This document shows, piece by piece, positions 51,625 to 54,075 of a stretch of DNA of 64,000 bases. The DNA lies in contig CM000430.1 in the NCBI GenBank assembly GCA_000165345.1, forward strand, positions 640,001-704,000, given 5' to 3'. The notes beneath the pieces are model-generated. The model had not been told where the DNA came from and made no database searches. It saw only the letters and a list, made by a program, of their open reading frames with translations. The position numbers were made by a program, and so were the translations under genes. Within the stretch, counting starts at the first letter, position 1; each line of letters starts with the position of its first letter.

Positions 51625-54075
51625 TCATAAATATTGAAATACTGACTCATCATGTACCTTCTGCAAATCAGCCGCCTTGTACTTTCTATCACTGTCATAT
51701 ATTTTAACAGATGCTCTAACTGCTGCATGTTCAATTGATAACTCATTTACTCCTCTAATTATCCTACAGAACCCTTTCTCGCCCCAACGTTTACCCCAAC
51801 TATTTTGAACAATCCAATAAGGTATTCTTTCATTACCATAAGTTTCCCATCCCCATCCTGTTATTACCATTGCATGGTCAACTTTATGCCAAGGAATACT
51901 TGACCAAGGATATTGTCGTGTAATAGGGTCATAAAAACCTTTAAATACTCCTGAATTATATAATGAAAATTCTAATGTTGGCTCCAAACTAACTGCAACA
52001 GGCCCTTCATTCCATAATGACTCCATAATATCACGAGCAGTAGTTTTTCCATAAACGTTATTGACATAGCTGTACTCCTTTACCTTAATGATCTTTGAAC
52101 ATGACTTTGGAATGTTTTTTGTAATAGGAATATCTTTCCTACATTGAGTATTTGCTGCGCCCATATGTCCGCCTAAGTCCCAACATAATTGTTGAATAAC
52201 ATTAAACTTTTTAGGAATATTATATTTTGCACCACTGAGATGCCCCAATTCTTCATTATCTGATGAATTCTCATCATCAGAATCGCCATAATAATCGTGA
52301 ACATTTGAAATATGCTCCGCACTATCACTTCCTTCTAAGTGTTCTTCCATATCTTTATAATCATCTTGGTACTTTTGATCATGTTTTTGGCCTTGCTCTT
52401 GATCATGCTCCCGTTCATGCTCCTGTTCATGCTCCTGTTCATGCTCCTGTTCATGCTCCTGTTCATGCTCTTGATCATGCTCTTGATCATGCTCTTGATC
52501 ATACTCTTGATTATCTCCCTCTTGTTGCTTAATTTCCTTAATTTTAGACTTTTTACTTTCAAACTTCTTTCCCTTTTTTGTTTGCAGAAAACTATGGCCA
52601 TCATCTGCGATTCCAACTTCGTCTGGCGTGTAAACAGGAGTTGGATATATTTCCTTGAGACCAAGATTTTTAGCATAATCATCTACACAATCCTGCGTTC
52701 TAACGCCAACTTCCTGAGCAAATTTAAAAGCAAGAGTAATTAATCCACCTCCGCATCCTTGATTATAAACATTACATTCAGACATCTGTATTGATGATGC
52801 ATAGATTTTTCTAAGTATATCAGGCTCATTTGAATATTTAATCCACAAACGAGACGTAATTATTGTAGCTGCTGTTACTGCAAAACAATCTCCGCAATCT
52901 CCTTGATTAAAAACTTCAGGAATTAATCGTACCTTCTTTCCTAATCTTCCATAAACATGCTGAGGATTTGCCCAATCAAATGACCTAATTCTCATCCAAA
53001 TTGGTTCATCAGTGTTATTTTTAGAACCAGAAATCTGCTCTTCTTCCCTAACACTTGATATTTCTGTAATATACTCATCATTCGACTTTTTTCTTTGAAC
53101 AAAATGTGGAGAAATTTTCAATGCTTTTCTTACTTTTGGTAATGTATCCAAATTCTGAATATCTCCTATCTCAAATTTATTACTTCTACTCCATAATTTA
53201 TTCTTACTTTCAAATTCTGAATATTTTGCTGATACTTCATTTAAATACTCAGCAATTGTTGGATTTTGTGCGTTAACTGGATGATCTGGAGGTAATCCCA
53301 AAGGTGATGATCTCCATCTTGGAAGCTTCAAAGTCCATTCTGTTCTATCTGTCATCTTACCATCCCCATCAAATATCCTCATTCCATACCAACAGCCTCT
53401 TCTAAGCTTTAAATCTTCACTCATAACCAGCCAAGGATAATTATTGTACTTACTTCTTTCTTCAAGTGATAATATCTTATTCTCTTCTTTATTATCTTGA
53501 TTAGAAATTACACTTTCAGGATATGAATCCCACCATCCTAGAAGAGTTGTGTGGCAATAGCAATATGATGCATTAATATCTTCATGTTCATTAATATACT
53601 TGAAGAACGCTGTATATCTATATGATTTTGTCCAGAATGTGAAAGCTTGATCTAATATTACTGTCCAGTTACCCGTTGTACCAACTTTTTCAAAATCATT
53701 AAACTTTCCTGTATCAACGCCATCCAAATTCTGGGTTGAAATAACCTTCAATTCACTACCTTCAAATTTTACATCAAATGTAAATGAAAGTTTAAAATTA
53801 TTGTTCATCAATCCTCTCTCTGTTGGTGTTAACATACTATGCGCAAAATCCCTATCTGGAGATGGAAATCCACAAGTTGGATCTTCAAATTTTTGATCTG
53901 AAGGACATGGCTTATAAGTTCCCACATGAATTCTCCATGTGCCAACCACATCGCCATGAATACAATTTGGTGGTAAATCACTTGATATTTCTCTAATTAG
54001 TATTGAAAAAAACCAACAAAATAAAGCCCATTTCCTTCGCAAACTAATATGAAATCTTGATTTAAATCCTCCCAT
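51625..54075 (-). CDS. Cathepsin C (dipeptidyl-peptidase I)-like papain-family cysteine protease with a large His/Glu/Gln/Asp-rich insertion (816 aa).
   Basis: ATG at 54075 verified. There is an N-terminal signal/anchor. The exclusion-domain similarity is DLPPNCIHGDVVGTWRIHVG ... FFKY ... YCH. The catalytic residues are Q-x-x-x-C (NQGDCGDCFAV), His (DHAMVITGWG) and Asn (VQNSWG). The repeat is (EHEQ/EHDQ)n. Confidence 0.85.
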   Translation of the reverse strand: MGGFKSRFHISLRRKWALFCWFFSILIREISSDLPPNCIHGDVVGTWRIHVGTYKPCPSDQKFEDPTCGFPSPDRDFAHSMLTPTERGLMNNNFKLSFTFDVKFEGSELKVISTQNLDGVDTGKFNDFEKVGTTGNWTVILDQAFTFWTKSYRYTAFFKYINEHEDINASYCYCHTTLLGWWDSYPESVISNQDNKEENKILSLEERSKYNNYPWLVMSEDLKLRRGCWYGMRIFDGDGKMTDRTEWTLKLPRWRSSPLGLPPDHPVNAQNPTIAEYLNEVSAKYSEFESKNKLWSRSNKFEIGDIQNLDTLPKVRKALKISPHFVQRKKSNDEYITEISSVREEEQISGSKNNTDEPIWMRIRSFDWANPQHVYGRLGKKVRLIPEVFNQGDCGDCFAVTAATIITSRLWIKYSNEPDILRKIYASSIQMSECNVYNQGCGGGLITLAFKFAQEVGVRTQDCVDDYAKNLGLKEIYPTPVYTPDEVGIADDGHSFLQTKKGKKFESKKSKIKEIKQQEGDNQEYDQEHDQEHDQEHEQEHEQEHEQEHEQEHEREHDQEQGQKHDQKYQDDYKDMEEHLEGSDSAEHISNVHDYYGDSDDENSSDNEELGHLSGAKYNIPKKFNVIQQLCWDLGGHMGAANTQCRKDIPITKNIPKSCSKIIKVKEYSYVNNVYGKTTARDIMESLWNEGPVAVSLEPTLEFSLYNSGVFKGFYDPITRQYPWSSIPWHKVDHAMVITGWGWETYGNERIPYWIVQNSWGKRWGEKGFCRIIRGVNELSIEHAAVRASVKIYDSDRKYKAADLQKVHDESVFQYL
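52380..52510 (-). repeat. Tandem 12-nt coding repeat (catgctcctgtt x5, catgctcttgat x3) encoding (EQEH/DQEH)n inside the cathepsin C-like gene.
   Basis: Read directly from the sequence. Confidence 0.85.

Follow-up and report, generated by a model that had tools for sequence, protein, structure and literature searches.

Does the histidine- and glutamate-rich block encoded within a cathepsin C-like protease gene of Cryptosporidium parvum form a functional module, or is it a passenger in a permissive loop? The gene lies on the minus strand, at positions 51625-54075 of the 64,000-nucleotide stretch of DNA that we analysed (hereafter the window; positions 640,001 to 704,000 of contig CM000430.1, assembly GCA_000165345.1), and an earlier note, made from the sequence alone, had proposed that the block might bind metal or heme or sense pH. 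Our analysis indicates that it is probably a young repeat expansion in a floppy, acidic surface loop of the catalytic domain, carried there as a near-neutral passenger.

The gene itself is already known and annotated. The open reading frame at 51625-54075 is a complete, intron-free, single-exon coding sequence of 816 residues, in agreement with the published description of cgd2_3320 ("cryptopain-4") on C. parvum chromosome 2, which a 2023 review reports to be 816 residues long and to have both a signal peptide and an exclusion domain of cathepsin C (PMC10454693). The same review calls the secreted cryptopains uncharacterised, and in the literature that we searched we found no biochemical characterisation of cgd2_3320. 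In a 2025 study of the secretome and transcriptome, the gene is given as the orthologue of TGME49_276130 (TgCPC2), its product as a secretome protein, and its mRNA as peaking at 12 h post infection (PMC12604037). The best matches of the protein in PDB, obtained with HMMER, are rat and human DPPI, and the product is predicted to be a secreted dipeptidyl aminopeptidase of the cathepsin C / DPAP type. A search of NCBIfam, whose library covers prokaryotes, gave no match.

The homologues found in a large clustered protein collection, which does not contain the window protein itself, are first all from Cryptosporidium, ranging from 84% identity (chipmunk genotype I) down to 46% (C. muris), and then Toxoplasma 'cathepsin CPC2' (E=2e-101) and a Cyclospora protein; a second search seeded with their alignment returned the same 10 proteins. 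The orthologue alignment used throughout comprises 11 sequences, namely nine from Cryptosporidium (the window protein included), one from Toxoplasma and one from Cyclospora. C. hominis, C. meleagridis and C. tyzzeri, the closest relatives of C. parvum, are not part of this set. Substitution rates were compared as the ratio of nonsynonymous to synonymous rates (dN/dS) in codon alignments with the genes of chipmunk genotype I and C. ubiquitum, which give three pairwise comparisons and a value of 0.14-0.17 for the whole gene.

All the features described here for the protease are encoded on the minus strand. The protein begins with a putative signal peptide (residues 1-32, 53980-54075) formed by the hydrophobic stretch WALFCWFFSILI and presumably cleaved before Asp33. 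The exclusion domain follows (residues 33-185, 53521-53979; Pfam PF08773, E=4.7e-12, 46.7 bits against a cut-off of 27). Its first residues, DLPPNC, align with DTPANC of mature DPPI, which makes Asp33 the equivalent of DPPI Asp1, and Asp33 is unchanged in all 11 orthologue sequences. The end of the exclusion region and the pro-region occupy residues ~186-365 (52981-53520), with approximate boundaries set by the Pfam match on one side and the start of the catalytic alignment on the other; within this region, the portion at residues 251-365 has a dN/dS of 0.11-0.15. The papain domain (PF00112, E=2e-30) is split into two stretches, one of them at residues 658-786. In terms of the fold, the N-terminal part, or L-domain, covers residues 366-467 (52675-52980) and aligns to DPPI 215-298, while the C-terminal part, or R-domain, covers residues 660-795 (51691-52098), aligns to DPPI 312 to ~432-434 and has a dN/dS of 0.03-0.06.

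The catalytic machinery is complete. When compared with mammalian DPPI (PDB 1jqp, 3pdf, 1k3b), the residues Asp1, Gln228, Cys234, His381, Asn403, Trp405 and Tyr323 correspond to Asp33, Gln391, Cys397, His734, Asn758, Trp760 and Tyr670. Gln391, Cys397, His734, Asn758 and Trp760 are unchanged across the 11 orthologue sequences, and Tyr670, at the chloride-site position of DPPI Tyr323, is conserved in the orthologues as well. The codons of the catalytic Cys, His and Asn lie at 52885-52887 (in CGDCFAV), 51874-51876 (in DHAMVITGWG) and 51802-51804 (in NSWG), respectively. The L-domain part also holds Cys394, Cys434, Cys441 and Cys463, which do not vary in the orthologue alignment. The two Pfam matches and the DPPI alignment bear out the description given in the earlier note of a cathepsin C-like cysteine protease with exclusion and papain domains and intact catalytic residues. 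In DPPI-type catalysis, an exposed N-terminal Asp docks the free N-terminus of the substrate, and Gln, Cys, His and Asn act in the removal of dipeptides. By family analogy, removal of the signal peptide would expose Asp33, which would dock the free N-terminus of the substrate, and Gln391, Cys397, His734 and Asn758 would then cleave off dipeptides.

The position of the block was defined by two alignments. With HMMER, residues 379-465 of the query align to DPPI 215-298 and residues 659-788 to DPPI 312-432, leaving residues 466-658 unaligned. Approximately 190 residues thus stand in for about 14 residues of DPPI, downstream of the catalytic Cys397 and upstream of His734, between the equivalents of DPPI Cys297 and Cys307 (Cys100 and Cys128 of cathepsin B); about 153 of the insert residues are specific to Cryptosporidium. 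The block is therefore inside the papain-fold catalytic domain, in a surface loop of the L-domain, and is not a linker between domains. The earlier note had placed it between the two domains, in the position of the propeptide, a place that belongs to the pro-region at residues ~186-365. We also considered that the insert might mark the site where DPPI is cleaved into heavy and light chains; this was rejected, since that site (Arg370/Asp371) maps to residues ~717-720, some 60 residues past residue 659.

The second alignment, made with MAFFT over the catalytic domain, included human DPPI, several ordinary family members, Plasmodium DPAP3 and human cathepsin B, the last verified as 100% identical to PDB 3k9m. 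Here the Cryptosporidium insert shares its alignment gap with the occluding loop of cathepsin B, PPCEHHVNGSRPPC, whose His110 and His111 line the primed subsites (PMC9712828). By this positional analogy, the loop would leave the L-domain at the primed-side rim of the active-site cleft. Structure prediction with AlphaFold2 was too poor to place it: the mean predicted local distance difference test score was 37.9 for the full protein modelled with the 11-sequence alignment and 34.1 for the catalytic domain (residues 361-800), and both models, unreliable overall, show coil at the insert. By its charge and hydropathy (H=0.24, with the boundary at 0.49), the insert core falls well within the disordered range, and it is predicted to be disordered. 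According to the list of cysteines, there are none between Cys463 and Cys631.

The insert is layered, and its layers differ in how strongly they are kept in the genus. The first module (residues 468-500, 52576-52674; AKNLGLKEIYPTPVYTPDEVGIADDGHSFLQTK) is specific to Cryptosporidium and conserved, with column conservation of 0.72-0.92 in the nine Cryptosporidium sequences and the pattern ..IYPTPVYTPDE.GIADDGHSFLQTK; in the alignment, it is not present in TgCPC2 or in the Cyclospora protein. It is followed by a variable core (residues 501-576, 52348-52575) with conservation of 0-0.37, which consists of a Lys-rich stretch and then the acidic, His-rich repeat, and which is 76 residues long here against 23-51 in the other species. 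A second module (residues 577-598, 52282-52347; EEHLEGSDSAEHISNVHDYYGD) is semi-conserved in the genus, and its pattern MEE..G...HIS..DYY can be recognised in eight of nine species. The insert ends with a variable, acidic and Ser-rich stretch (residues 599-620, 52216-52281; conservation 0.2-0.3). The remainder of the loop (residues 621-659, 52099-52215) is common to coccidian CPC2 proteins and holds Cys631, Cys645 and Cys659, which are unchanged in all 11 sequences; Cys659 corresponds to Cys312 of rat DPPI.

Measured as the distance between the invariant Cys463 and Cys631, the insert is 167 residues long in the window protein, 141 in both chipmunk genotype I and C. ubiquitum, 131 in C. felis, 127 in C. 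canis, 122 in a Logan-derived Cryptosporidium sequence (P0003), 113 in C. ryanae, 111 in C. muris and 102 in C. bovis, while the same distance is 21 in Toxoplasma and 18 in Cyclospora. Comparison with orthologues, which the earlier note had proposed as a check, therefore gave a divided answer: all the Cryptosporidium sequences carry the insert, but Toxoplasma and Cyclospora are without it (18-21 against 167 residues), and the repeat occurs in no orthologue. The composition of the core varies as much as its length. It contains nine histidines here, none in the closest available relative and 0-2 in the eight other Cryptosporidium sequences, and 12 Lys and Arg residues against 0-6 in the other species. 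The Lys-rich stretch (residues 501-517, 52525-52575; KGKKFESKKSKIKEIK) adjoins the acidic repeat in this species only, giving a loop that is first basic and then acidic.

The net charge of the whole insert (residues 464-630) is -21 to -29 in the group of C. parvum, C. ubiquitum, C. canis and C. felis; C. bovis and C. ryanae have -9 to -12, and C. muris has -2. This trend parallels overall similarity to the window protein: C. muris is 46% identical to it, C. bovis and C. ryanae 56-60%, and the remaining species 61-84%. Niche, C. muris being gastric, and relatedness therefore cannot be separated as the source of the trend.

Substitution rates follow the same layering. The dN/dS is 0.07-0.25 for the module at residues 468-500, 0.04-0.07 for that at residues 577-598 (where dS is saturated) and 0.20-0.39 for residues 599-620, while the three pairwise values for the repeat-bearing core are 0.40, 0.52 and 1.41. 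The core is the least constrained segment of the gene and evolves in a near-neutral manner.

Within this core lies a tandem repeat with a 12-nucleotide unit. Tandem Repeats Finder reports 9.4 copies at 52394-52506, with 93% matches and 0% indels. The repeat is translated in frame, and residues 526-561 read DQEH three times, EQEH four times, EREH and DQEQ; on either side, degenerate x-Q-[EK]-[HY] units carry the period on, so that it spans residues 522-569 (52369-52512). A degenerate 18-mer of the repeat unit matched nine times in register, compared with no matches in 100 dinucleotide-preserving shuffles. These results and the open reading frame confirm that an acidic, His-rich block is encoded at this place by an in-frame tandem 12-nucleotide repeat. 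The earlier note had described an (EHEQ)n block of roughly 130 residues, and a low-complexity block at residues ~500-625 does fit that size and composition (25 Glu, 15 Asp, 15 Gln, 15 Lys and 13 His among 126 residues), but the repeat proper spans only 36-48 residues. Its 36-residue form has 8 His, 18 Asp and Glu, and a single Lys or Arg, and the insert as a whole has 14 His in 158 residues. The array has the form of a coding minisatellite: head-to-tail units of high identity, a unit length that is a multiple of three and an open frame.

Two DNA subtypes of the unit are present, GATCAAGAGCAT (DQEH; GAT CAA GAG CAT) and GAACAGGAGCAT (EQEH; GAA CAG GAG CAT), and the repeat units are the same at synonymous sites. 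Because of this identity at synonymous sites, the array is better attributed to recent slippage or unequal exchange than to selection for the peptide pattern. The gene of chipmunk genotype I has one GATCAAGAGAAT unit (DQEN; GAT CAA GAG AAT) at the homologous place, and the 12-nucleotide array is absent from all eight other Cryptosporidium species examined. The G+C content of the repeat is 0.47, compared with 0.23-0.27 in the flanking intergenic DNA.

Residues 537-557 (52405-52467) contain five overlapping HExxH strings, which motif scanners may flag as a zinc metalloprotease. We rejected this reading, since the strings are an automatic by-product of a four-residue period in low-complexity sequence.

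The same protein is encoded in two NCBI assemblies, and an identical coding sequence was found in four contigs; one NCBI assembly is identical to the window base by base over 8.45 kb. No variation in copy number was found between the window and GCA_048859185.1, a small and closely related sample that differs by two single-nucleotide polymorphisms and one homopolymer indel over 8.45 kb. Length polymorphism of the repeat, which the earlier note had expected, is plausible. Neither a description nor typing data for the cgd2_3320 repeat appeared in the literature searched on cgd2_3320 and on variable-number tandem repeat (VNTR) markers of chromosome 2. A metagenome scan yielded no Cryptosporidium relatives, only a low-complexity match (L003, positions 1501-1614 of contig Ga0307982_1005436) with 54% identity to residues 515-569; it is an unrelated acidic, Gln/His-rich stretch and not a cathepsin C.

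We read these layers as follows. The two genus-wide modules (residues 468-500 and 577-598) may hold the loop against the enzyme or act as sites of recognition or processing. Between them, a spacer predicted to be disordered drifts freely in length and sequence from species to species and is strongly acidic in most. Into this spacer, in one lineage only, the 12-nucleotide array would have grown from a single DQE(N/H) unit by replication slippage or unequal exchange: an Asn-to-His codon change would have come first, then the amplification that produced the (D/E)QEH array, with the second subtype (GAA CAG GAG CAT) amplified afterwards. The loop as a whole would be at most a steric or electrostatic appendage that keeps the enzyme monomeric or soluble, biases access to the primed side or is clipped during maturation. 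Both the slippage origin and the lack of a specific function of the repeat are what we infer from these observations, and the repeat is probably a low-complexity insert of an ordinary parasite kind, without a conserved role in binding metal or haem. The proposal of a metal-, heme- or pH-responsive module found no support, as the histidines are confined to one lineage (0-2 in the eight other species) and lie in a near-neutral segment; the idea is undercut because they stem from one His codon amplified in one lineage.

Several observations pull in the other direction. The insert is kept at the same site in every Cryptosporidium species examined and is strongly acidic in the intestinal clades (-21 to -29), and the two modules inside it are under purifying selection; because of this retention across the genus and this selection on the modules, the loop as a whole is probably not function-free. 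Nine histidines spaced at i, i+4 and flanked by Glu could, in chemical terms, coordinate Zn, Ni or Cu and shift charge near neutral pH, and the repeat may have a function in this lineage alone. The dN/dS of the core rests on 48-49 alignable low-complexity codons and is imprecise, and the age and variability of the repeat within the parvum clade fall outside the species sampled.

Among the alternatives, the one that survives best, although we consider it unlikely, is that the block is an internal processing linker. The loop would be cut or excised during maturation, giving two chains held together by disulfides (Cys434 to Cys631 or Cys645, and Cys463 to Cys659), much as DPPI is cleaved into heavy and light chains and cathepsin B has a two-chain form. 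The insert lies between conserved cysteines that correspond to the DPPI pairs Cys267-Cys307 and Cys297-Cys313, a pairing that we take from the known DPPI and cathepsin B pattern, and because these disulfide-forming cysteines enclose the loop, clipping would not separate the chains. Long disordered loops are accessible to proteases, and a variable core flanked by conserved modules is what such a linker might look like. The behaviour of related enzymes can be read both ways: in DPAPs, processing generally takes place within the catalytic domain, and DPAP3 undergoes cleavage in acidic lysates, but the processing of P. falciparum DPAP3 (PfDPAP3) is an artefact of lysis and its full-length form is active (PMC5973627). 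The canonical DPPI cleavage site, in addition, lies at residues ~717-720, outside the insert.

We are more doubtful of a regulatory lid, in which a polyanionic, His-studded loop would fold over the primed subsites as an autoinhibitor or as a gate controlled by pH or by metal (Zn, Ni or Cu, bound through His-x3-His). Its appeal comes from topology and chemistry. The insert occupies the same topological site as the cathepsin B occluding loop, in which His110 and His111 line the primed subsites (PMC9712828); the net charge of the 36-residue repeat would be roughly halved upon His protonation; the repeat holds five overlapping HExxH spacings; and the acidic character of the loop is kept in most species. 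The histidines, however, are lineage-specific (0-2 in the core of eight other species), no part of the gene is under less constraint than the repeat core, which belongs to a segment predicted to be disordered, the insert is without a disulfide of the Cys108-Cys119 type that shapes the cathepsin B loop, and Plasmodium DPAP3 has an unrelated Asn/Lys-rich sequence in the same loop region. A broader form of the idea, which we rate as very improbable, would make the genus-wide acidic loop itself a functional, flexible polyanionic lid, to which the (D/E)QEH array would add a His-x3-His stripe and thereby an access to the active site responsive to pH, Zn or Cu in the gut lumen or the parasitophorous vacuole.

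That the block lies outside the protein, as a lineage-specific intron or as an assembly artefact with a wrong repeat count, is hardly credible: a GT (in GAGTATGAT) and many AG dinucleotides do occur within the repeat, but the unit length is a multiple of three with the frame open throughout, the modules on either side of the repeat are conserved as protein with low dN/dS (0.04-0.25), which also makes unlikely the intron that the earlier note had named as a possible refutation, the G+C content of 0.47 is exon-like, and two independent assemblies carry an identical coding sequence whose published model is also 816 residues long (PMC10454693).

A young expansion in a permissive loop also agrees with what is seen in the rest of the family. 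As a proxy of loop length, we used the distance between the C.GG and GP motifs in 141 parsable representatives from an exhaustive HMMER search. The median distance is 71 and the 90th percentile is 113, while the window protein has 246; long distances are also found in other Cryptosporidium (181-220), in three Plasmodium DPAP3 proteins (178-198), in Amoebophrya (337) and in another protist protein (257). The loop is prone to insertions, and the Cryptosporidium insert is not unique. It has been reported that alveolate DPPIs carry several large insertions that are sterically incompatible with the mammalian tetramer, in a set that did not include Cryptosporidium (Varda and Novinec, PMC8836896), and such insertions were removed when DPAP3 was modelled (PMC6851853).

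A close parallel is Plasmodium DPAP3 (MEROPS C01.139), which combines an exclusion domain with a papain fold and has a motif of the CGSCY type. Outside Cryptosporidium and the coccidia, the highest scores among the matches checked for a source name belong to DPAP3 proteins (E values from 1e-78 to 1e-68). In this loop region of the catalytic domain they have their own low-complexity insert of 100-130 residues, but it is rich in Asn and Lys and not in His and acidic residues, and overall identity is ~26-29%. In addition, the DPAP3 insert apparently comes after the conserved 'LC.D' cysteine, whereas that of Cryptosporidium comes before it, and because they lie on different sides of this cysteine we regard the two as independent events. 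PfDPAP3 is a secreted enzyme that is stored in an apical organelle and has an important part in invasion (PMC5973627); the product of cgd2_3320 is likewise secreted and belongs to the invasion-stage secretome (PMC12604037).

TgCPC2 (TGME49_276130) shares with the window protein the extended loop segment with Cys631, Cys645 and Cys659, and both TgCPC1 and TgCPC2 belong to the dense granules and reach the parasitophorous vacuole by secretion (PMC6107107). TgCPC2 differs in having 21 residues where the window protein has 167, without acidic insert or repeat, in its CGSCY motif against CGDCF here, and in its Tyr against Leu at the position of DPPI Phe278. Mammalian DPPI differs in its short Cys297-Cys313 loop (~15 residues), in its shorter pro-region and in being a tetramer that needs a free Cys331 (PMC8836896). 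Thr678 occupies the Cys331 position in C. parvum, and this substitution, together with the 150-residue insert in the mature domain, fits the monomeric alveolate type and not the tetrameric one (PMC8836896).

The similarity to the cathepsin B occluding loop (residues 105-126) is a positional analogy only. Both share the insertion point in the papain fold, and histidines are functionally important in cathepsin B (PMC9712828). The cathepsin B loop is nonetheless about 20 residues long, ordered, stapled by Cys108-Cys119 and conserved, and it makes the enzyme a carboxydipeptidase, while the insert described here, of about 150 residues, is some eightfold longer, variable, predicted to be disordered and without internal cysteines, and belongs to an aminopeptidase with an exclusion domain. 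The His-rich repeats of HRP2, HRG and Hpn are not a good match either, given the 14 His in 158 insert residues, the 0-2 core His in orthologues and the relaxed constraint. A better comparison is with the low-complexity inserts of apicomplexans and the VNTRs used in multilocus VNTR analysis of Cryptosporidium, which are also in-frame, short-unit repeats in hydrophilic, fast-evolving segments. Coding repeat loci serve as typing markers in C. parvum (PMC4746124, PMC12446620), but the cgd2_3320 repeat is not among the markers named in the literature that we searched.

Apart from the insert, the active site shows several unusual positions. The earlier note had stressed that the motif at the catalytic Cys lacks the usual Trp, but among the 141 relatives CGSCY is found in 117 and CGSCW in only three, and Phe is within the norms of the family. 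The less common feature is the preceding residue, Asp396 (codon 52888-52890, in CGDCF at residues 394-398), which is a rare change from Ser: CGSC occurs in about 127 of these relatives and CG[DN]C in 11 (CGDC in four, CGNC in seven). Within the genus, the position passes from Ser in C. muris to Asn in C. bovis, C. ryanae, C. canis and C. felis, and to Asp in the group of C. parvum, C. ubiquitum and the chipmunk genotype. An acidic side chain adjoining the thiolate is unusual.

The chloride site of DPPI, in the S2 subsite, is formed by Tyr323 and Phe278, the latter being Tyr in most alveolates (PMC8836896). Leu445 (codon 52741-52743) stands at the Phe278 position; this residue is Leu in eight of the nine Cryptosporidium sequences, Phe in C. 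muris, and Tyr in Toxoplasma and Cyclospora. Judging from these residues, the chloride dependence of the C. parvum enzyme may differ from that of DPPI. The catalytic domain has nine cysteines, an odd count. One of them, Cys770 (51766-51768, in GFCRII), is specific to Cryptosporidium, Toxoplasma and Cyclospora having Ala in its place; considered along with the extra Cys631, it suggests an additional disulfide or a free thiol that has no DPPI counterpart.

Coding tandem repeats are frequent in this region of the chromosome, and Tandem Repeats Finder returned 11 rows over the 64-kb window. One of them is a very long (GTA)n tract of about 195 copies at 9056-9641, between two minus-strand open reading frames, which may join them into one gene or mark a region that is difficult to assemble. 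Shorter trinucleotide tracts are found at 9846-9919 and 11238-11303, inside the open reading frame at 9710-12058, whose long poly-Thr runs give it the appearance of a mucin-like glycoprotein. Within the coordinates of large open reading frames, there are also a 12-nucleotide unit in 3.7 copies at 3999-4042, (CTA)27 at 44481-44562, an 18-nucleotide unit in 8.3 copies at 46533-46682 and (GGAACA)11 at 58935-59000. The downstream neighbour of the protease gene (48594-51071, minus strand, 825 residues, no family match) encodes a Ser/Asp/Glu-rich repeat region at 50650-50780; its weak, sub-threshold matches to staphylococcal SD-repeat models were attributed to low complexity, and homology to ClfA or ClfB was rejected.

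Low-complexity insertions in the alveolate cathepsin C loop are known in general, and this particular insert is undescribed in the literature searched. What is new here is the location of the insert at the occluding-loop site, its three-layer structure and the recent, lineage-specific, His-rich expansion in the least constrained segment. In practical terms, the value is small. The repeat could be used as a length marker that discriminates species or subtypes, if it proves variable. A new mechanism would follow only if the lid hypothesis were true, in which case the polyanionic loop would be a lineage-specific regulator of an invasion-stage protease, tunable by repeat number. The corrected domain map of cryptopain-4 matters for homology modelling, construct design and inhibitor work on this secreted, invasion-stage protease, which belongs to a major diarrhoeal pathogen. 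For the family, these results indicate that several alveolates, among them Cryptosporidium and Plasmodium (in DPAP3), have expanded the papain fold at its occluding-loop position independently of one another.

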